Shown one piece after another: positions 8,994-61,839 of a DNA stretch of 64,000 bases. This DNA is from Oculina patagonica (Eukaryota). Location: contig NC_135761.1 of assembly GCF_052425735.1 (NCBI RefSeq), positions 21,638,001 through 21,702,000 of the forward strand, given 5' to 3'. A model generated the notes under the pieces. That model made no database searches. It worked only from the letters and a program-made list of their open reading frames with translations, and was not told the DNA's origin. A program made the position numbers and the translations under genes. Numbering within the stretch: position 1 is the stretch's first letter; every line of letters starts with the position of its first letter.

Positions 8994-11900
8994 ATGACAT
9001 TTTCTCCTGAACAACTGAACTTTTTCAAGTTTTCTACTGTTGTTATAGATGAATTCCCAGACGTCTTGCGTAAGGCCTTTGTCTTCATGTGGGACAACCG
9101 TGTCGCTTCCCCACCTGGCGTCCCAAAATGGGACGACTCTGTAACGGTTCAAAGCTTGTTCCTTGCAAAAGAGGGTGGTGTGAAGAAAGTTCCAACTCTG
9201 AATAAATCTTATAAGGAGTGAAACTGTACAGCTTTGTTCAAAGCCACTCTCTTTGCTCAAACCTTTGCCATGCCAGACGGGACTGGAGGTGTTTGCACGT
9301 TGGACAAGCTGTATGTGAGACCACGTGGTTTATCAACCGGGACATTTCACCACTCGGTTATCAGCCCCACTGGCAACACAGCTGAGACGTATGCCTTGGC
9401 GTTGGATCAGCTTCGCTTGCTGCGAAACACGCTTTGCCACCAAATCAGCACCCAAAAGATCGACAAGGCTACCTTTGTTCGTTATATATTGTTGGCAAAG
9501 GATGCCTTCACTGCACTTGGACAAGACACCACAAGGATTGATGACATTGGAAAGCTGGGCGAAGGGGACTTTCCCACAGCAAGGCTTCAGCAAGTTGAGG
9601 ACGAGTTGAAAAGGGAAAAGGATGCTGCCATAAAATTTAAACAGATCGACGATCATCTTATCAACATCGAGTTACAAGTGGAAGATGTCGGGTCTGACGT
9701 GAAAGATGTGAAAACTGACGTAACAGATGTCAAGTCACAAGTGGAACATGTTGGGGCTAACGTGGAAGATGTGAAAACGGAACTAACAGATGTGAAGACA
9801 CAAGTGGAAGATGTCGGGTCTGAAGTAAAGGAATTAAAGGCTGATGTTGTTGACATAAAAATGGCAATGCAAGCGGAAAACTCTAAAGGTGAGCTTTAAT
9901 TTGTAGTCTGGGTGAAGTAGTCTCGTGATCGTCGTGCATGTGTGCTCGAAGTGAGCATCTAATTGTTTCGGGTGTTTCATGGAACTCAGAGTACATACTT
10001 ATTTGCTTAATTTTATCGCCTGAGAAACCTTGTGTGGTCTTGGAAAAATAGTTAATTCTTCCAAATAGATGAGACTCGTACCCTCGGGACCCATTCATTC
10101 ATTGAAACCAGTGTGTGGTGACAGGCAAGTTGCAAGATCGACTGACAAGTATTCACTGTCACAGGGCTGTCTTTCAGACGGCATCGTTTAACCTATTTTC
10201 TTTTATGATTTAAGGTCCATCCGTTCCCGACTCGTGCATACCAGATAAAATACCGCACTTTGTTGGTCGCCAGGAAGAGTGCCTAGCAGTCTTAAATCAT
10301 TTAACAAATGGAGACACTCGACTGGTTGATGTCTGGGGTCCACCGGGATTTGGAAAGACGTCAGTGGCTGTTCAAGTGGCCCATCACTTGAAAGAGATGA
10401 AGATTCCAGTCTACTTTACATCTCTTCGCGGGATGAAAAGTAAAGATGATCTAGTGTCAAAGCTTTTAAGTATATTTACGGATGCTACACAGGCGTTTTA
10501 TGTCTCACCCTCTCATTGGCTCATCCAAAGTTTACAACAACTGGAGTATCCGTTTGTCCTTATTTTGGATAATGCTGACGACTTACTGGAATCTGGAGAT
10601 TCCAAACTGAAAGAAGACGTGCTCGGATTTACGAAGGAGATTCTTGCCCAATGCAGTCAAATCAAGCTTCTTCTCACGACTCGTGAATCTCTAGACTATC
10701 TGAGCCATAAGCTTTACATCCATCAAGAAAGAGTTGGTGTACTGGATGGAGTATCCTCTGTCAGCTTAGTGAAGTCCCAATTGCCCTATGTCTCAGACGA
10801 TGACTGCAGTTCCATAGTAAAGGTATGTGGACAAGTTCCTTTGGCAATGCGATTGATGTGTAGCATCATGATGGAAGAAAATGTTTCAATTACTGGGCTC
10901 TTAGAAGAACTGAAGGTTTCGCCTCTTGTTGAGGTTTTGGACAATGAAAATTTTTCCGATGATGCTCGACTGACAACCATAATCAACAAATCATTTGAAA
11001 GACTTAATTCCCAAGAGAGAGATGCGTTTGTGTCACTGGCTGTTTTTCCTAGCAGCTTTGGAGTGAAAGAGGCTACGGCTGTTTTGGATTTGAAGACAGT
11101 TCGACCGACCAAGAAAGTGATTAGATCGCTGAAACGAAAATCTTTAATAGATTGCAGTGAAGATGTTGAATCCTTCACAATTCATTCACTTTTGCGATCC
11201 TTCATTGACGAAAGAAGAATAGCTAACCAGGCAATTCAAACCATGTTTCATGCAGCACAACGTCGTTTCTACGACTATCAGATCACAAGTTTTGGCGTGG
11301 CTAATGAAAAATTTCTAACGGGTCATTCTACTGACGCATTTCAAGTTTTTCTTGGTCAACGGGAGAGCATCCTGCTGTCCCTTTTAGATGGAGCACAGGA
11401 TGACGCACTCTACCCCAAAGTTGTAGAAGTATTGTCGAAGGCCGAGTTATTTTTTTATGTGGTACTGTCCGATGAAAAGGAGTTATTCGACAGGGTTTAC
11501 TGCACCGCAGTAGAAGAAGCAAAGAAAAGTCAACGTCGCGACGATGAATGCAACTTGCTTGCTGCCAAGTCGTTTGGCTCCTTGGAAAGGTTAACCGTAA
11601 ACCGTCAAAGCTGGGACGAGTCCTTGATAGCTCGTATTCGTGATTCTACTGATAGCTGTCCAGCGAAGCATTTATGCTATCTTGGCGTCCATCAGCTGCT
11701 ATGTGGAAAAATGGACGACGGCATGTCGTCTCTTAGAACTTCTGTAGATCGTCTGAATAGTATTAACTGCGACGAAAAAGTTCTTAAGGTACTTTCCTGT
11801 CATGCACTTGCAGTCTGTTATAGAAAGAAAGGTGACAAGGAAAACGCATCTAAGTTTGAAACTTTCTGCGACAACGAGTGTAAGTCTACATCGTTGAGTC

Positions 11901-13501
11901 CTGTGGTTCGCTATGTCTTCTTACAAGACAGCTCTTCAGCTGATGAACCGACAGATTTCGCCAGTATTGTCGAGCGAGATGTTTTCTTTTTTGTAGTTAT
12001 GGCTAAAACATTATTTGCGCTTTACAGCAAGCTGGAGTTTGGAAAGCAGGCGAAAACTGAACTATCTTTAATGACCCGTCATTTTGTTGGACTGTACAAA
12101 GTTTTTCTTCCATTATCTGGCAAAGGAACGGTCGATGTTTCGATACTAGAGGCTTGTTGCCAGGTGCTATATAGTTTGAGCTGTTTTAAGGAAGCAGCGG
12201 AAGGTTATCAAATAATAACAGACAAACTTGAAAAGACGCCAGGAAACTGGTCTGACATATTCACAGCTCATGCTTACTTATTTTGCGGCTTAGCTCTGAA
12301 AGAACTGAAAGACCATGATGGAGCTTTCTATTGTTTAAAGAAAGCTTTAAATATAAGAAGGCGACTTTTACAAGAAAACAAGGATGGAACGCACGGCAAC
12401 AACATGGTCGGAGAGACTATCAAATCACTTGCGCACTGTTTGGAAATGCAAAAAAAAATCGATTGCGGTACTTTTGGTCACACTAACGATTTCAAAGCCA
12501 TCTGCGAAGAAATTAAAAGCGAACTTAAGACAATGGAAAAGATTTGTGGCGTGAACCTCGCTGAAATCGCAACAAATTACAACCAGCTTGGTTTTTGCTA
12601 TTGGCTTATGGATGACAACAGTGGAGCACTTGAGTCATATCAGCAGGCTCTAAAGATAAGAGAAGAGTACGTGGGCGATTCCGAAGACAAAGTATCATTT
12701 CTACAGAATATTGGAGCTGTGTATTCCAGAATGAATCGGAACAGTGATGCTGGCAAGGCATTGGAAAGTGCATTGGATCTGAGGAAATCGTTGGGGATTG
12801 AAGATCACGCGGATACCGCTTTTATTTACCATGAACTTGGGATGAACCATCTTGAGCTGGGTGAGTTGAGTGAAGCTCTTAATGCACATCGACAGGGCTT
12901 ACAGCTTAGAAAGAAACACTTAGGTGATCACCCCAGTACAGTTCAAAGCCTTACTGAAACAGGATGTGTGTATCTTAGGATGGGCGAGTATCAGGCTGCT
13001 AGAGAACATTGTCAGAAAGCTGCCGATTTATCAAGCACATTGCTTGGTGACCATGAAGATACCGCCTCTTCATTCTATTGCCTAGCTGTAGTGTACCTTA
13101 AAATGGGGAACTACAAGGGAGCTCTTGATGCTTGTCGTGAAGCTAGGAACATAAGATTGAAGCTATTAGGTGAACACGTGGATACAGCTGAAAGCCTTCA
13201 ATGTTTTGGATTCATATGTTTTAAGATGCGTGATTTTAAAAGAGCTGTCAGGTCCCTTGGGAGGGCGTCAGCGTTGAGATCAAAACTTCTTGGTGACCAC
13301 TTAGACACAGCACTGAGCTACCACTGCCTTGGTGAAGCGCAGATGTCTATGGGTGACTTCAGCGGTGCCATGGAATCTTTGAAGAAAGCTTTGAGTATTC
13401 GAGAAAAGGAAAAGCATTCATACGCCGCCGTAACTTCAGAGCTGCTAAACCGCGCCTATTTAGGCTACTTGATTAAATACGAATCAGCGTCTCAGCAATA
13501 G
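8994..13501 (+). CDS. NLR-like HEPN (DZIP3-like)-coiled coil-STAND/NB-ARC NTPase-TPR protein, ~1393 aa, with one in-frame TGA (possible null allele or young pseudogene)
   Basis: Exons 8994-9888 and 10215-13501; GT-AG phase-1 intron (AAAG|gtgagc...tttaag|GTCCA). ORFs 8970-9221 and 9234-9899 are in the same frame, separated by TGA 9219-9221. Motifs: HEPN RNTLCH, heptad repeats, FVGRQEE, Walker A GPPGFGKT, Walker B LILDNADD, LLLTTR, CGQVPLA, IHSLLR, then tandem TPRs (e.g. A..Y..LG....G....AL). Confidence 0.88.
9675..9857 (+). repeat. 63-bp (21-aa, three-heptad) tandem repeat, ~3 copies, encoding a coiled coil
   Basis: CAAGTGGAA recurs at 9675, 9738 and 9801; peptide QVEDVGSDVKDVKTDVTDVKS/QVEHVGANVEDVKTELTDVKT/QVEDVGSEVKELKADVVDIK. 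Confidence 0.9.
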
Positions 13502-43594: not shown

Positions 43595-43896
43595 TCCTTC
43601 CCGATCATGACTAAAAGTTCCTTGGTAGGGTAGGGTGAGGAGCGATGACTCGCCACTTTGACTTACCGTCCGAGAGCCTGGGGCGAGGCAGGCTAATATT
43701 TCGCTTCTTCCTTCTATCTTTTCGTTCTTTATTTTTTTTAATCTTCTTTAAACCTTTTTATTCTAAATTCTATTGATCTGACGAATATTTCTTTTCTTTC
43801 TAACCAATAAGTGCATAGTTTGACTAATACCTTGACTTTTGATACTGTTAAAAACGTTGCTCTTTATTTGAGAAATTAATTTTGATGTTGTGGTCG
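43595..43896. promoter_or_regulatory. Short head-to-head interval between DENND11 and SCLY (candidate bidirectional promoter)
   Basis: The two start codons are ~300 bp apart on opposite strands. Confidence 0.6.
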
Positions 43897-46800
43897 ATGG
43901 ATCCAAAGTTTGAAGATGAAAACAAAGAAAATGAGTCTAAAATTTATTTAGACTACAATGCAACGACTCCACTAGAACCATCAGTACTGACAGCAATACA
44001 TGATGCTTTGCGCGATGCCTGGGGAAATCCCAGTAGTTCTTACACTGCGGGCAAGAAAGCAAGTCACGTGATTAAGCAAGCTCGCAGCTCAGTGGCTAAC
44101 ATGATTGGTGCTTTGGAAAGTGATATTATCTTCACATCAGGTGGTACCGAGGCAAACAACATGGTCATTCATTCAGCTTTGGAATATTTCCGTGAATTTC
44201 ACAAGGAAAGAGGAAGTTGTAATGTTGATGTAAAACCTCATGTGATCACATCAAATCTTGAACATGACTCTATTCAGCTTCCACTCCTAAACCTTGAAAA
44301 GCTAGGCAAGGTTGAGGTGACACTTGTTGCTGCCTCGCAGGACTCTGGCGCAGTAACAGCAGAAGCAATATTGCAGGAAGTTAGACCCAGTACATGCCTG
44401 GTCACCGTCATGATGGCCAACAATGAAACAGGGGTAATTCAGGTAACTGAAGGTTTTTCCCCTATTCCTCCAAGCCTCCCTACCCCACCCCACTTGTTTA
44501 AGCCACCTCCAGTAAGCTCTTTTTTATAACCTTTCCCAACCCTCTATTAGGTATTAGAAGGTTGTCGAATGGTTAATGTGTGACTTTGTGAGATGGCGAG
44601 CCTGATGTCTTTTCTGCGAGCGCAAGACCATTTTAGCCTCGCAAAAGAAATGAAGACTCCGAGAAGGCCTCAAATAAAAATTGGAGATGACAAGACTTCT
44701 GAAATTTGGCTAAACTTTTGGGAGACATATTTTTTGAAGGACCATTCACCACCCCTTATTGGCGCCAATACACAGAAAGGGTTTTGTTCCTGGGTTATGC
44801 CCCAGGGGCATGCTGCTGTAGCAAAGCTCCTCTGTGTGTACCAACGATGTCATGATATTATTTAGCCCCGAGAGCAAAATTCCACCCTGCAAAATGGGAA
44901 CATGATCCTAGGACAGATGGAATCCAATTTTATAAACCCTTCAGTTTATTGAACCTCCTGAGAACTCAAACCAAACATCATTTCACTTCTCCCAGTATAA
45001 TAACATTTCTCTAATTCCTCGCTTTCTTAATCCTGCTGGGTTTGAGAAATCTGATTTCCGGTGTATGTATATATCAATTGTAATCTGTTTTTCGTTTTTT
45101 AATCATCAGCCAATTGAAGACATTGCTAAAGCCATAAGAAGCCTAAACAAGAGTCGCTTATCTCAGAAAGTCCCCAGGATTCTTGTCCATACAGATGCAG
45201 CACAAGCTATTGGTAAAATCGAGGTTGACGTGGACGAGCTGGGAGTGGATTACCTCACGGTTGTTGGTCATAAGTTTTATGGACCCCGAATTGGTATGAT
45301 AACAGAGGGATACCTATGGAAAAATCTACATCTACATCCTGGGGGGTTGGAAAGGGAGGCATGCTCCCATCACTGCAAGACATTAAATAAAAAATAAAAT
45401 ACAGGGGGTGGGAGGGGGGGGGGGAGGGTTGTAAAACACCTTAAAAAATATATATAACAAAGTATGATAATATTAACTTGACAAGACGTCAGGCTTCAGT
45501 ATACATCGTTTTATTGCGACAAGTCTGTTTCGTATGGACCTAAATTAATAGGTCCACACTCATCAGGCAACTTCATTAAAGTTGCCTGATGAGTGTGGAC
45601 CTATTAATTTAGTTCCATACGAAACAGACTTGTCGCAATAAAACGATGTATACTGAAGCCTGAGTACCTCTTGTCAAGTTAATATTATTTATGCTCCTCG
45701 ATCAAATGAGTTGAGCGCTCTTCAAAATACATTCTTCTCACGAAAGAAATAATTTATAACAAAGTATGTATATAATTTAAAAAAGAAAATTAAAAAAAAT
45801 TAAAATACCTATGCATCAAGTTAATTTAGATTAAAAAATAATTAGAACCTAATTAAAATGTCATCAGTTGTATAAATGGGTGCTGGTCGTGCCATAATAC
45901 AGAAAATCCCCTCCTCAGACGGAGGAGACCGACTGGCCTACCTGTATATTAAGATCTCCAACAACCCTCCAAGTTAAGACCATTTTAGTCGCCATGGCGA
46001 CTAAATTGGAACCAAAGTCGCCAGCCTGGCGACTAAAATTGAGAAGAAGGATTGAAAGCATGAGCTTAATTTAGCGACTAAAATTTTTCACTGGCGAACA
46101 AACCTGAGCAGTCGGTGGCCAAATGGCCACTAAGGAAAAAAATAAACTTGCAGGGTTGTCCAAATAAGACAAATAAATACCCCATCTATTTCACTGGCAT
46201 AAGAGTGTATATCCTTATTAGAGTATACCTCTAGATCTCTCCCATCCACAATATTTTAACATCTATTCATTCAATAATCTTTTAACAGTATTTTTACTGA
46301 ATATTGTGCATAACAGGAGCCCTGTATGTAAGAAATCCAAGAGCAGATACTCCCCTTCACCCCATGTTTTTTGGAGGAGGTCAAGAGAGAAACTTCAGAC
46401 CAGGAACAGAAAACACTGGTATGATAGCTGGATTAGGACAGGCCTCCCAGTTAGTGGTGGACAACTTGGAACAATATCGTGAAAACATGAAAATGGTTAG
46501 TGACATTAGAGTCTTGGAATGGGCGGAGAAGGACTCCTGTACTTAAACAGATAATGATGCTTGTCATCTTGCTTATGGATGTAAATTTCAGATTTTGGTT
46601 TTCACTTATATAGAGTGGTGTTCAAAGCAAAACAAACAAATTTCTTTTAGCCATCATGCTCTTATCTAGGGTTGCACATGAAGAAATTGGTATACAACAA
46701 ACTTGCGCCATGCCCATATTAGCCTTCTGTAGGTGTTTAATTTAAAACACTAGGTGAGCATCCACAACTTTTTCTTATGGGAGTCCCCACCTCTGACCCA

Positions 46801-49344: not shown

Positions 49345-50280
49345 CTAGGCATTTCCTCTGTAATACAACACGGGGTTTATACCAGAGCAAAGAGTGGCGA
49401 AAACATAGAACATGGGCCTCACAAATAGACTGAGTTTCATACCAAGAATCATCGATAAACCCATTGCAAACGCCAGGGGAATTATTAACAAAACAAGTAA
49501 ACAGACAACATGGCGAGTAGTCGCTGCTAGCTGGCGCTCGATTGCGTTATTAGCGGTAGCAGGATTTACCCGAGCGCTTTCCTCCATTACCTGTGCGACT
49601 GCATTGTTATGCTTACGAAGGGTCACAAGAGTTAATATCTGGACACCTACAACCAGACAAGAGAAGAAGATGATTAGACTCGTTTGAAAGATCTCGAGCG
49701 CTATGGGAGGAAGCACCTCCATTTTCCGTAATATCACCATTAAAACTGATGCCAGCCACACTCCGCTGCAAGCAAAAATAGCATGCTGCATCGTGACGGT
49801 CGCTTTGTACCACATTGGTTTAGCGACTGCTAAGTAGCGATCCACGCTTATCACTCCAAGATTACCCAGCGTAGAAAACAAACTTAAATTGAAAAAAACA
49901 GGCATAAAAGACGACTTCCAATCGCTAGGATTGGTACACGCCTTACCAGAAAGCAAGTCATTGACCCTGTTTCTGACAAACATGGGCGTCACCAGTCCTC
50001 CCCACACGACATCAGTCAGAGTCAAACTACACAGCAACAGAAACCCTGGCCTGATTCGAAGGCCACCCCTGAGAATGGCAATCAGGACTAACCCGTTTGA
50101 CAGGAAACACCACAGACCTAACAATGTGGTGACCGGTACGAGAAAAAAGTTGGAGTAATAAAGAAAGTGAAGCTGGGGAGTATGTGAGATTCCAGAGGAA
50201 AAACACGATCGCTTCGCTTGCTCCGTTGCCAGGTCTGGGAAAGCAATCTGCGTGTCATTTGTAGTCAAGTTCAGCTTCAT
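49345..50280 (-). CDS. Class A (rhodopsin-like) GPCR, copy 1, C-terminally truncated (311 aa)
   Basis: Seven hydrophobic segments; SN, LTLTD, ISVDRY, INPVLY. TAG at 49347-49345 replaces the CAG of the paralogs; the ancestral frame continues to TGA at 49308-49306. Acceptor ttttcacag lies just upstream of the ATG. Confidence 0.88.
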   Translation of the reverse strand: MKLNLTTNDTQIAFPDLATEQAKRSCFSSGISHTPQLHFLYYSNFFLVPVTTLLGLWCFLSNGLVLIAILRGGLRIRPGFLLLCSLTLTDVVWGGLVTPMFVRNRVNDLLSGKACTNPSDWKSSFMPVFFNLSLFSTLGNLGVISVDRYLAVAKPMWYKATVTMQHAIFACSGVWLASVLMVILRKMEVLPPIALEIFQTSLIIFFSCLVVGVQILTLVTLRKHNNAVAQVMEESARVNPATANNAIERQLAATTRHVVCLLVLLIIPLAFAMGLSMILGMKLSLFVRPMFYVFATLCSGINPVLYYRGNA

Positions 50281-51176
50281 GTTCACGCTGTGAAAAGAGT
50301 GAAAAAGTTTTGTTACACAAACACACTAGGGCTCAGGCTTAGAATTTGGAGTCACATCAATGCATTCCATATATTTCATTTCATGCTTTCTTCTAGTGAT
50401 AGATTAATACCACGTCCCTCCCTGCTACTAGATTGGATTTGTGTTTGGTCATCCCGAATTCAACTCCTCCACGCTGTGTAAATAGCTAGCTGGTCAGCCT
50501 TCTGCCAGTTGGGGCTTTAACAAGTTCGTGTTTGATTCTCATTGTTTATTTATTTGTTTATTTTTCACATTTCATTTTTGTTGCTATGCTTTTTCTGCTT
50601 TGGACTTGAGTCGCATCAATATAATCTGCTTAGCTTACATCCTTCCTCAGCAGAGAAGAAAGTTACGAGACTCGCTTATATCATGTCGCACAGATGAATA
50701 TAGGCTTTCTGTGCTCCAAGGCTTCTTAGGTCTTCTTATTGCGCATCTCAATTCTACACTGGTTCGTTTTTACGTTTTTGGACAACTTACCTTTTACATG
50801 GTTAATGGTTATGTGAGCACTAACGAGGGTTTCCAAAAACGTTTACTTCACTCCACTGCAAAATTCTTCAGTGATGCAGTCGAGCTGCAATACCTGATGA
50901 ACATGAAGATTTAGACTATTTGTTTGACCCATGTCTATCAATTTTATGGGAAATATTACGCTTAAATTTGCGTTGAGTTTTGAAAGAAGTTTCACATCAC
51001 GGATACTTTTACAAGACATGACCATGCCGCTATGTACCCAAAAGATTTAAGTCATTTAAATTTTTCAAGACAGTTTGAACGCGCAAATATTCTATATGCA
51101 CTCAACAAAAATCAATTCAACTTTCTTTCGCATTTTCAACATAAAACAGACTAAATTCAAAATGTCTAAACCTTAC

Positions 51177-53607: not shown

Positions 53608-54647
53608 GTAAGGTTTAGACATTTTGAATTTGGCCTTTTTCATATTGAAAATGCGAAAAAAAGTTGAATTGATTTTTAATGCGGTAAAAATAGATAATTT
53701 GCGCGTTCAAACTGCCTTGAAAAATTTAAATCTTTTTGGTCGATAGCGGCATGGTCTTGTCTTGTAAGAGGGGTCCGTGATGTGAAACTTCCTTTAAAAC
53801 CCAACGCAAATTTAAGCGTAATATGTTCCATAAAATTGATATAAAGATGGGTTTTTAAAAACGTCAAACAAATCGTCTAAATCTTTATGTTCATCAGGTA
53901 TTGCAGCTCGACCGCATCACCGAAGAATTTTGCAGTGGAGCGAAGTAAACGTTTTTGGAAAGCCTCTTTGTCGTTAGCGCTCACATATATAAAAGGTAAG
54001 TTGCTAAAGTTGTCCAAAAACGTACGAACGAACCAGTGTAGAATTCAGATGCGCAATAAGAAGACATAAGAAGCCGTGGAGCACAGAAAGCCTATATTCA
54101 TCTGTGCGACATGATATAAGCGAGTCTCGTAACTTAATTCTCTACCGAGTAAGGATGTGAGCTAAGCGAAGATAACAGATTATCTTGATGTGACTCAAGT
54201 CCAAAACTGAAAAAAAGCATAGCAACAAAAAAATGAAATGTGAATATTCTTGCAAAGCCTCTCAATGTTGTCGATAAATAAACAAAATAATAAATAATTA
54301 ATCACTTTATATAAGCGTCGATTTATTTAGCACTGCTGTGCTAATTGAAGACACTGTAAATAAAAAAATAAACAAATAAATAATGAAAATCAAACATGAA
54401 CTTGTTAGAAGCCCCAACTGGCAGAAGGCTGACCAGCTAGTTATTTACACATAGTGGAGGAGTTGAATTCGGGATGACCAAACACAATTCCAATCTAGTA
54501 GCAGGGAGGGATGTGGTATTAATCTATCACTAGAAGAAAGCATGAAAGAAAATGTATTGAATCAGTGAGAAGACTCCAAATTCTAAGCCTGAGCCCTATT
54601 GTGTTTGTGTAAAACAAAACTTTTTCATCTCTTTTCACAGCGTGAAC

Positions 54648-55622
54648 ATGAAGCTGAACTTGGCTACAAATGGCACGCAGATTGCTTTAGAAGACCTGGA
54701 AATGGAGCAAGCGAAGCGACCGTGTTTTTTCACAGGAATCTCACAAACTTTCCAGCTTCAATTCTTTTATTACTCCAGCGTTTTTCTCGTTCCGGTCACC
54801 TCTTTGTTAGGTCTGTGGTGTTTCCTGTCAAACGGGTTAGTCCTGATTGCCATTCTCAGGGGTGGCCTTCGAATCAGGCCAGGGTTTCTGTTGCTGTGTA
54901 GTTTGACTCTGACTGATGTCGTGTTGGGAGGGCTGGTGACGCCCATGTATGTTAGAAACAGTGTCGAGGAGTTGCTTTCTGGTAAGGCGTGTACCATTCC
55001 TAGCGATCGGGACTCGTCTCTTATGCCTGCATTTTTCTTTTTATGTTTTTATTCTACGCTGGGTAATCTTGGAGTGATAAGCGTGGATCGCTACTTAGCA
55101 GTCGCTAAACCAATGTGGTACAAAACGACCGTCACGATGCAGCATGCTATTTTTGCTTGCAGCGGAGTGTGGCTGTCATCAGTTTCAATGGTGATATTAC
55201 GGCATGTTAAGGTGCCTCCTCCCAAAGCGCTCGAGATCTTTCAAACGTGGTTCGTAGTCCTCTTCTCTTGTCTGGTTGTAGCTGTCCAGATATTAACTCT
55301 TGTGACCCTTCGTAAGCATAACAATGCAGTCGCACAGGTAATGGAGGAAAGCGCTCGGGTAAATCCTGCTACCGCTAATAACGCAATTGAGCGCCAGCTA
55401 GCAGCGACTACTCGCCATGTTGTCTGTTTACTTGTTTTGTTAATAGTTCCCCTGACGTTTCTAATCGGTTTATCGCAGATTCTTGGTACAAAAATCAATC
55501 TATTTGTAAGGCCCTTATTCTATCCTACCACCACTCTTTGCTCTGGTATAAACCCCGTGTTGTATTACAGAGGAAATGTCCAGATTAGGGACGGAATCAC
55601 TAAACTTTTGAAATGGCAGTGA
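54648..55622 (+). CDS. Class A GPCR, copy 2 (324 aa)
   Basis: 7TM pattern, DRY, NPVLY, helix-8-like IRDGITKLL; single coding exon after an acceptor ending at 54640. Confidence 0.92.
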   Translation: MKLNLATNGTQIALEDLEMEQAKRPCFFTGISQTFQLQFFYYSSVFLVPVTSLLGLWCFLSNGLVLIAILRGGLRIRPGFLLLCSLTLTDVVLGGLVTPMYVRNSVEELLSGKACTIPSDRDSSLMPAFFFLCFYSTLGNLGVISVDRYLAVAKPMWYKTTVTMQHAIFACSGVWLSSVSMVILRHVKVPPPKALEIFQTWFVVLFSCLVVAVQILTLVTLRKHNNAVAQVMEESARVNPATANNAIERQLAATTRHVVCLLVLLIVPLTFLIGLSQILGTKINLFVRPLFYPTTTLCSGINPVLYYRGNVQIRDGITKLLKWQ

Positions 55623-60025: not shown

Positions 60026-61000
60026 TCACTGCCATTTCAAAAGTTTAGTGATTCCGTCCCTAATCTGGACATTTCCTCTGTAATACAACACGGGGTTAAT
60101 ACCAGAGCAAAGAGTGGTGGTAGGATAGAATAAGGGCCTTACAAATAGATCGATTTTTGTACCAAGAATCTGCGATAAACCCACCAGAAACGCCGTGGGA
60201 ATTATCAGCAAAACCAGTAAACAGACAACATGGCGAGTAGTCGCTGCTAGCTGGCGCTCAATTGCGTTATTAGCGGTAGCAGGATTTACCCGAGCGCTTT
60301 CCTCCATTACCTGTGCGACTGCGTTGTTATGCTTACGAAGGGTCACAAGAGTTAATATCTGAACAGCTACAACCAGACAAGAGAAGAGGATAACGAAACA
60401 CGTTCGAAAGATATTGCTCGCTTTGTGAGGAAACACTTCCACTTGCCATGAAATCACCATTGAAATTGATGACAGCCACACTCCGCTGCAAGCAAAAATT
60501 GCGTGCTGTATCGTGACGGTCGTTTTGTACCACATCGGTTTAGCGACTGCTAAGTAGCGATCCACGCTTATCACTCCAAGATTACCCAGCGTAGAATAAA
60601 AACATAAAAAGAAAAATGTAGCCATAAGAGGCGAATCCAAATCGCTAGGATTGGTGCACGCCTTGCCAGAAAGCAACTCCTTGACCCTGAATCTAACATA
60701 CATGGGCGTCACCAGCCCTCCCCACACGACATCAGTCAGAGTCAAACTACACAGCAACAGAAACCCTGGCCTGATTCGAAGGCCACCCCTGAGAATGGCA
60801 ATCAGGACTAACCCGTTTGACAGGAAACACCACAGACCTAACAAAGTGGTGACCGGTACGAGAAAAAAGTTGGAGTAATAAAAGAAGTGAAGCTGGAAAG
60901 TCTGTGAGATTCCTGAGGAAAAACACGGTCGCTTTGCCTGCTCCATTGCCAGGCCTGGAAAAGCAATCTGCGTGTCATTTGTAGTCAGATTCGGGCTCAT
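60026..61000 (-). CDS. Class A GPCR, copy 3 (324 aa)
   Basis: Paralog of copies 1 and 2; ATG at 61000 follows the same ttttcacag|cgtgaacATG acceptor. Confidence 0.92.
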   Translation of the reverse strand: MSPNLTTNDTQIAFPGLAMEQAKRPCFSSGISQTFQLHFFYYSNFFLVPVTTLLGLWCFLSNGLVLIAILRGGLRIRPGFLLLCSLTLTDVVWGGLVTPMYVRFRVKELLSGKACTNPSDLDSPLMATFFFLCFYSTLGNLGVISVDRYLAVAKPMWYKTTVTIQHAIFACSGVWLSSISMVISWQVEVFPHKASNIFRTCFVILFSCLVVAVQILTLVTLRKHNNAVAQVMEESARVNPATANNAIERQLAATTRHVVCLLVLLIIPTAFLVGLSQILGTKIDLFVRPLFYPTTTLCSGINPVLYYRGNVQIRDGITKLLKWQ

Positions 61001-61839
61001 GTTCACGCTGTGAAAAGAGATGAAAAAGGTTTTTTTACATAAACACAGTAGGCAGAGGCGGCGGAGCGTTTTGGAACGTGGCGGGGAAGGGGGGGGGGGG
61101 GAGGGAGGGACTGTCCTAAAAATACTCGGCAGGTGCAACGTTTTTCCGTTCTAGTAACTTTTTGTTTTCCGAACAGTTTCTAGACCGAAATGAGATTTGC
61201 AAAGATTCCCGAATTGTTTTTCGAGGGCATACGAACGTTTCCTATCATTTTCGAACTTTTCCGAAGTTAAAGGAAGTTTCCCGAAGACTTCCAAGAAAGT
61301 TTCAGAGATGTTTGAACCCACTCACGAGACGAAATATCTTGACAAACCAATTTTACGCTGCGCTCGCGATATTTTCGGCACTAATTATAAAACTAATATC
61401 GTTTACTGTAGTTACTATCTTATTTTATCATAGTATCGTGTTAAATTGACATTTTCGTGATGTTTGGCGTTCGGATAATGTAAAAATACTAAGCATTTAT
61501 CGACCGTTCACAAACGTGGAATCACACCACTGTGCTCACCCCTAAATACCTCATTACAGGAAAATTACGCATTTTCAATATGAAAGAGACAAAAGTCGAA
61601 ATGTCTAAACCTTACCGTCTAAGCTAAGATTCGGTTTACAATCTACCACAATCACACCAACGAACTCCTCGAAGTCCTCGCTGGATATCTTCACGCGTAA
61701 GGCTCAGTTGCAGCTAAACGAATATTTCTCAATTTCTCAAATAAAACCTGATTTGTTTCAACGATTTGTCAATTTCGTGGCGGCGTGGAGCAAATGTGTC
61801 ATGTTCATTTCAACGGTTTGTTTTTGACGATAATGCAAT

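Follow-up and report, generated by a model that had tools for sequence, protein, structure and literature searches.

Does the gene at positions 8994-13501 of a 64,000-nucleotide stretch of the coral Oculina patagonica (RefSeq assembly GCF_052425735.1, contig NC_135761.1, positions 21,638,001 to 21,702,000 of the forward strand; the whole stretch is called the window here) encode a working immune receptor, and of what kind? The sequence-only reading had described it as an animal NOD-like receptor (NLR) built like a bacterial antiviral sensor, with an N-terminal HEPN domain, a coiled coil, a STAND NTPase and tetratricopeptide repeats (TPRs). We consider it probable that this locus is a member of a coral HEPN-coiled coil-NB-ARC-TPR family that was broken by a stop and has likely died recently, and that the intact members of this family act as one-protein immune sensors whose HEPN domain would cut RNA. 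The receptor reading is supported for the family by its HEPN motif, its STAND switch and the diversification of its TPR groove, but it fails for this locus, where a TGA at codon 76 interrupts the frame.

The anatomy read from the sequence was borne out in each of its four parts, whose coordinates are collected in the table below. Exon 1 is 94% identical to residues 1-299 of an intact neighbouring copy, P0001, and contains RNTLCH as its sole Rx4-6H motif. The spacer that follows the HEPN domain has a hydrophobic periodicity of 3.5 residues; its DNA is a tandem repeat at 9670-9818 with periods of 21 nt and 63 nt, and the copy number of the 21-nt unit varies among paralogs. The intron junction is identical in P0001 and in the public gene model of this locus, P0269. 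In exon 2, an NB-ARC NTPase with all core motifs precedes a C-terminal TPR array (Pfam TPR_12, E 1e-57).

The premature stop decides the fate of this copy. Codons 76-77 read TGA AAC in the window vs TGG GAC in all nine close paralogs; the lost Trp is invariant in 37 of 37 paralogs and the lost Asp is present in 214 of 230 aligned relatives. The frame is thereby truncated after 75 residues, upstream of the RxxxxH motif. As the stop lies 667 nt before the exon junction, it is a usual trigger of decay, and this copy would yield either an mRNA subject to nonsense-mediated decay or a 75-residue stub. The simplest reading is a young null allele, and the copy is most likely recently dead. Readthrough of the TGA as Trp or selenocysteine was considered and rejected, since the paralogs have TGG, the adjacent codon is altered too and an Rfam search of the whole window found no family at threshold. 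The gene is also a mosaic: between 9594 and 10193, in the spacer and intron, it differs from paralog L031 by 3 and 4 mismatches per 300 nt, compared with 10-29 elsewhere, and in the TPR stretch 12894-13193 it has 9 mismatches per 300 nt to paralog L034 vs 29 to L031, a pattern likely left by gene conversion.

Alternatively, the gene may be intact in the animal, the stop being either a fault of the assembly or a change that is somatic or heterozygous in the colony sequenced. The doublet is the sole lesion across 1393 codons and the remainder is still constrained. On the minus strand GG>AA is CC>TT, the classic tandem change of ultraviolet damage, and a recent or somatic event is plausible in a coral. 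We nonetheless regard an intact gene as unlikely, because two public annotations (KAL9975971.1 and XP_078365563.1) leave the genomic sequence as it is and begin the protein at Met93, and because lesions are present in at least 11 of the 32 comparable paralogs, so that dead copies are common in the family.

This family is sizeable. The genome of the window contains 52 matches to its HEPN part, and a search with the STAND gave 41 matches above 100 bits, nearly all adjoining this HEPN. A related STAND lies downstream in 32 of the 40 paralog loci fetched as ten-kilobase stretches, and it is among these 32 that stops, frameshifts or an insertion break at least 11. A tandem cluster on the window's contig holds eight copies within about 160 kb, five intact and three broken, including this one. 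Five further copies at C1296:21253-104714 match five cluster copies (contig C4) in score and frame length and are likely a duplicated haplotig, so raw family counts are inflated. P0001 is identical to a public 1388-residue protein of Oculina patagonica, and named relatives come from Stylophora, Orbicella and Porites. The search for cluster representatives gave 430 matches, of which 150 were inspected, without taxonomy; alignment A1 omits L046 and two stop-bearing exons, L054 and L061. This is a coral gene family under birth-and-death evolution, with signs of sequence exchange between copies. Beside one broken paralog lies an LTR (long terminal repeat) retrotransposon frame with reverse transcriptase, RNase H and integrase (L062:5035-9900, minus strand). 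At L055 and L056 (contig C13) the same HEPN exon is followed by TPRs with no STAND match between them. Among 23 longer proteins scanned, the same HEPN was joined to TPRs only, to TPR-CHAT, to an IIGP GTPase of the interferon-inducible type and to TRADD-N, the HEPN-TPR, HEPN-TPR-CHAT and HEPN-IIGP-GTPase proteins being found in other samples; such varied immune modules are expected of a portable, shuffled immune effector. One 1814-residue gene model of Stylophora pistillata named 'mab-21-like 2' (P0383) clusters with a relative of this STAND-TPR, which may reflect a cGAS-like gene next to it or fused with it, or two genes merged in one model.

Does the N-terminal domain belong to the HEPN superfamily? 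By Pfam alone it falls short: HEPN_DZIP3 (PF18738) matches 33 of 37 paralogs, but wherever a score is given it is 14.5-22.3 bits (best E 2e-5), below the curated cut-off of 27 bits, and strict membership is therefore not reached. The identification stands instead on profile comparison, the structural model and the position of the motif. An hhalign comparison with canonical DZIP3 copies gave E 1.2e-4 and probability 55, pairing RNTLCH with RNTVYGH plus the next helix, and the family profile found two canonical DZIP3-HEPN genes (E 3e-6 and 4e-6) in the frames of six test loci. An AlphaFold model of the intact neighbour's HEPN (pLDDT, the predicted local distance difference test, 87) has helices at residues 5-37, 78-85, 129-149 and 158-174; the motif, at 144-149, ends the third long helix, then come a loop and the fourth helix. 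This is the position at the end of helix 3 described for HEPN domains (PMC3710099), here with an insert before the motif. Homology to DZIP3 by hhalign and by the family profile, despite the score below cut-off, makes the domain a diverged sister of DZIP3-HEPN. In the Atlas its neighbours are clusters from cnidarians and molluscs, of which some have DZIP3-HEPN members. Canonical HEPN_DZIP3 domains form a very large separate expansion in the same genome, with at least 150 matches over the cut-off at 141-227 bits (150 of 264 candidates scored). Pattern scans for this HEPN, by an insensitive method, confirmed 0 of 23 candidates in prokaryote genomes and 0 of 54 in viral contigs.

The domain is probably catalytic, a predicted RNase. 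The sequence-only reading had made conservation of RxxxxH among paralogs one of its conditions, and RNxxxH is kept in 35 of 37; among the 122 cluster representatives that cover the motif, R is found in 116, N in 114 and H in 107, which places all three among the best-kept columns of the HEPN alignment. A conserved Rx4-6H with a polar residue after R is characteristic of the HEPN superfamily, and the motif R and H are required for RNase activity in KEN and PrrC (PMC3710099). The same conservation argues against a HEPN-like domain that binds RNA or partner proteins without cutting, in receptors that would signal via an adaptor. In support of such a domain are its wide divergence from catalogued HEPN families, below the Pfam cut-off, and the 18 of 122 representatives that lack any Rx4-6H by a string test. 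On balance we judge a non-cutting domain unlikely, marginally more so than an intact gene at this locus. In structure, the likeness to RNase L/Ire1 KEN, Csm6, Cas13 and AbiF, in which Rx4-6H also ends helix 3, is at the level of the fold only; those RNases are activated by kinases, CARF ligands or guide RNA and not by a STAND. A VIA structure search with the HEPN model ranked Csm6 first (Z 6.3, root-mean-square deviation 4.7, 116 residues aligned), with AbiF at Z 5.7 and Cas13 at Z 5.5.

The STAND module has Walker A, Walker B, the sensor-1 Arg, GxP and the MHD-like His, as in NB-ARC NTPases, and these motifs are nearly invariant across 72 aligned relatives. Pfam NB-ARC scored 23.9 and 31 bits in two paralogs and 19.4 in this copy (cut-off 23.5), and NACHT 22 bits against a cut-off of 26.7; the Pfam search of the gene gave no LRR (leucine-rich repeat) match. 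The gene is not a canonical NACHT-LRR NLR, and is an NLR in the broad sense only. The best fold match of exon 2 was the archaeal STAND-TPR 6MFV (E 3e-12), followed by Avs3, the apoptosome and Avs4 (8DGC and 8DGF appear), among many TPR proteins; a sequence search of the PDB returned no match for the HEPN and none for the STAND. The best NCBIfam match was FxSxx_TPR, at 113 bits against a cut-off of 300.

With exon 2 fully open, all its motifs present and a STAND 90-93% identical to those of its cluster neighbours, this copy could also be an effector-less sensor. Translation restarting at Met93, which lies 48 nt past the stop in good context (gccATG), would yield the 1301-residue protein of public model P0269, lacking the first HEPN helices, and this protein might join intact neighbours in mixed oligomers, as their sensor or decoy subunit. 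However, restart after a 75-codon frame is usually poor, the stop is far enough upstream of the exon junction to invite decay, the public start may be the gene finder's way round the stop, and nothing points to an old allele or to its retention in other samples. We find this improbable and keep to a dead copy.

If the intact members are receptors, their ligand specificity would be expected to be set in the TPR groove. Across six cluster copies, the ratio of nonsynonymous to synonymous differences (pN/pS) was 0.32 in the HEPN, 0.32 in the nucleotide-binding domain and 0.81 in the TPRs. Positions 2, 5, 6, 9, 12 and 13 of a TPR are ligand contacts (PMC1261162). In seven copies, pN at these groove positions was 0.31 vs 0.088 elsewhere, and 0 of 20000 random six-position sets reached the observed value; groove pN over pS of all positions was 2.2 (1.65-2.9), and groove pN was 1.6 times local pS. 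In a second, distant clade, in which repeats were compared within genes, groove pN was 0.28 vs 0.12 (p 0.015; 10 of 11 genes usable, L057 being dropped because no repeat fitted the pattern). Judged from these comparisons, the HEPN and NTPase are under purifying selection, and the excess of amino-acid change on the TPR groove is as expected of diversifying receptors; the groove pattern names residues likely to set ligand specificity. Two paralogs, L044 (C9:25749000-25758900) and L047, carry very long arrays of near-identical 42-residue TPRs, in open frames of 2531 and 1572 residues with mean repeat identities of 0.86-0.89.

These parts suggest how an intact member may work. The TPR groove would capture a ligand, either foreign or a sign of damage, the NB-ARC would replace its ADP by ATP and then oligomerise, the coiled coil would bring HEPN domains into proximity, and paired RNxxxH motifs would cleave RNA, so that translation is halted or the cell killed. 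We infer ligand binding, nucleotide exchange, oligomerisation, HEPN pairing, RNase activity and outcome from related systems, the steps beyond the anatomy being drawn from Avs7 (PMC13581612) and known HEPN RNases. Should intact members prove to be ligand-gated RNases, corals would have one-protein receptors with which infected cells are killed or silenced, and counts based on Pfam would overlook an entire family of them. The copy studied here is of little importance, since it is most likely dead. Tentatively, and with confidence a little short of even, we suggest that stony corals possess dozens of single-chain suicide RNase receptors, a second arsenal not annotated until now, in which a cryptic HEPN is carried via a length-tunable coiled coil on its own NB-ARC clade and TPR grooves are in an arms race, adaptor-free and with a logic like that of bacterial abortive-infection STANDs.

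Several observations weigh against a dead copy of an RNase-receptor family. At the locus, relaxed selection is not yet seen, dN/dS against the neighbour being 0.028/0.096 in the HEPN. Contigs from four sequencing runs cover all 30 bins with paralogs mixed together, and position 9221 is absent among the 40 of 298 rows listed; the change may be fixed or polymorphic, somatic, or an error of the assembly. No RNA run was listed among the sequencing runs. As to the HEPN fold, Z scores of about 6 are also reached by unrelated helical bundles, and a non-HEPN adhesin ties with Csm6; Foldseek found nothing at E<=0.001 for the HEPN model in the PDB, and the Atlas recognition value of 2229 is just below its mark of 2300. 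For the groove, some variable columns were known before the position set was fixed, and it is because the first test was not blind that the second clade was run; there, groove pN/pS came to about 0.95 and did not exceed 1, and position 24, outside the groove set, varied most. Variable grooves are also found in many TPR families without an immune role (PMC1261162), and pairwise counts among recombining paralogs are not independent.

How unusual is this design? The HEPN/NB-ARC/TPR design is already known in corals, contrary to the impression that it is exceptional for an animal. Coral NB-ARC proteins mostly end in TPRs and frequently have an N-terminal DZIP3-like HEPN (PMC10236652), and Additional file 17 of that study tabulates HEPN/NB-ARC/TPR genes of Acropora and Pocillopora in orthogroup OG0000193 (among the 30 of 323 HEPN rows and 30 of 266 TPR rows examined). 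These have the same three-part order in the same animal group, a likeness that rests on architecture. Canonical DZIP3 HEPN/NB-ARC/TPR genes also occur in this genome (L101-L103 and L106); they pass PF18738 with 141-227 bits, and the STANDs of the four examined are about 28-37% identical to this one, whereas members of the present family reach 14-22 bits, with an insert that is longer and a heptad spacer that varies. What is new here is a HEPN family below the Pfam cut-off, on its own STAND clade and with a diversifying TPR groove. The 'noneDetectedN' NB-ARC-TPR orthogroups OG0000334 and OG0000227 (PMC10236652) may be this family. DZIP3-HEPN is fused to TPR, NACHT and death domains and is expanded in Nematostella (PMC3710099), HEPN is the commonest NACHT partner in many anthozoans in a survey of nine cnidarians (PMC8260672), and HEPN fusions in cnidarians (PMC8195603) and HEPN-NACHT genes in oyster (PMC9646362) have been described. 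The HEPN-NACHT-LRR/WD40 NLRs of anthozoans and bivalves (PMC8260672, PMC9646362) resemble the present family in being an expanded group of STANDs with an Rx4H HEPN as effector at the N-terminus, but their NTPase is NACHT, not NB-ARC, their sensors are mostly LRR or WD40 and their HEPN is canonical DZIP3. Common as HEPN is on anthozoan NACHT and coral NB-ARC-TPR proteins, our search of the open literature, with subscription papers such as the Acropora NLR survey outside its scope, turned up no animal HEPN-STAND whose function had been studied, in line with the sequence-only reading, which knew of no functional characterisation of the class, and nothing that describes the present diverged HEPN family.

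Outside animals, a fungal NB-ARC-TPR receptor is a closer analogue than Avs. Fungal NLRs of this type share with the coral family an enzymatic N-terminal effector, NB-ARC and kinesin-light-chain-type TPRs; in both, the repeats of an array resemble one another, their number varies and so do sites on the concave TPR face (PMC4986451). The arrays of L044 and L047 resemble the internally conserved repeats of fungal NLRs, and the nearest Atlas clusters of this STAND are basidiomycete. The likeness is of design; the effectors in the available part of that study are HeLo, sesB, PNP_UDP, Goodbye and others, not HEPN. In Avs3, Avs4 and Avs7, the TPR binds the ligand, ADP is exchanged for ATP and a tetramer assembles the nuclease (PMC13581612). 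Avs and P0001 both join an N-terminal enzymatic effector, a STAND and a TPR sensor in one chain, and are alike in design only; Avs differ in that their structurally studied effectors are DNases such as Cap4, their ligands are phage proteins and their STAND belongs to another sequence family. The special link to Avs drawn in the sequence-only reading is reduced to analogy. PADLOC 2.0, whose library predates Avs families described after 2023, gave no Avs profile match in the four proteins scanned, only generic TPR and weak ATPase rows, and the nearest prokaryotic relatives of the STAND are seven plasmid proteins of 23-33% identity, AP-ATPases mostly of regulator/TPR type. That the family descends directly from a bacterial defence gene taken up in one piece, an Avs or another nuclease-STAND-TPR, is the least probable reading and very improbable: bacterial Swt1-like HEPN-STAND-TPR fusions do exist (PMC3710099, Table 1), and in the Atlas a bacterial Swt1-like HEPN cluster scores 0.87 and bacterial NB-ARC clusters 0.98, but the top HEPN clusters are cnidarian and molluscan, the top STAND clusters are basidiomycete as well as bacterial, the plasmid relatives are distant regulators, and an intron divides effector from STAND while the same genome has another HEPN family with a STAND of a different clade, consistent with exons having been shuffled repeatedly in animals.

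Table. Positions of the parts of the HEPN-NB-ARC-TPR gene and of other genes in the window
Feature	Position	Strand	Remark
Gene, two exons, 1393 codons in total	8994-13501	+	ATG at 8994, stop TAG
Coding exon 1: HEPN domain and heptad spacer	8994..9888	+	ATG 8994, GT donor 9889
Diverged DZIP3-like HEPN domain, ~209 codons, stop inside	8994..9620	+	profile comparison, AlphaFold model
TGA codon 76 plus D77N, via GG>AA doublet 9221-9222	9219..9222	+	
Met93, in-frame ATG, start in public 1301-aa gene model	9270..9272	+	
RNTLCH, HEPN Rx4H motif, codons 144-149, closing predicted helix 129-149	9423..9440	+	
Heptad-repeat coiled-coil spacer, 21-nt unit	9621..9887	+	
Intron, phase 1, GT-AG, 326 nt	9889..10214	+	
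Exon 2, single open frame of 1095 residues	10215..13501	+	
NB-ARC / AP-ATPase STAND module	10215..11220	+	
Walker A (GPPGFGKT)	10337-10360	+	
Walker B (LILDNAD)	10559-10579	+	
Sensor-1 Arg (in LLTTRE)	about 10682	+	
GxP (in GQVPLAM)	10829-10840	+	
MHD-like IH (in IHSLL)	11180-11185	+	
Helical arm, then degenerate TPR-like solenoid	11221..12568	+	all-helical in model; weak TPR matches
Seven TPR repeats of 41-42 residues	12569..13411	+	hypervariable groove positions 2, 5, 6, 9, 12, 13
Normal stop codon TAG	13499..13501	+	
Class-V aminotransferase exons	43852-45397	+	Aminotran_5 E 6e-32 and 9e-11
GPCR (G-protein-coupled receptor) gene 1	49345-50325	-	ends ~19 codons earlier than the other two
GPCR gene 2	54561-55622	+	7tm_1
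GPCR gene 3	60026-61150	-	7tm_1

Elsewhere in the window, the three GPCR genes are very similar single-exon genes of the rhodopsin family in alternating orientation (7tm_1, E 1e-15 to 4e-18). The aminotransferase, by its appearance, is presumably a selenocysteine lyase or cysteine desulfurase.

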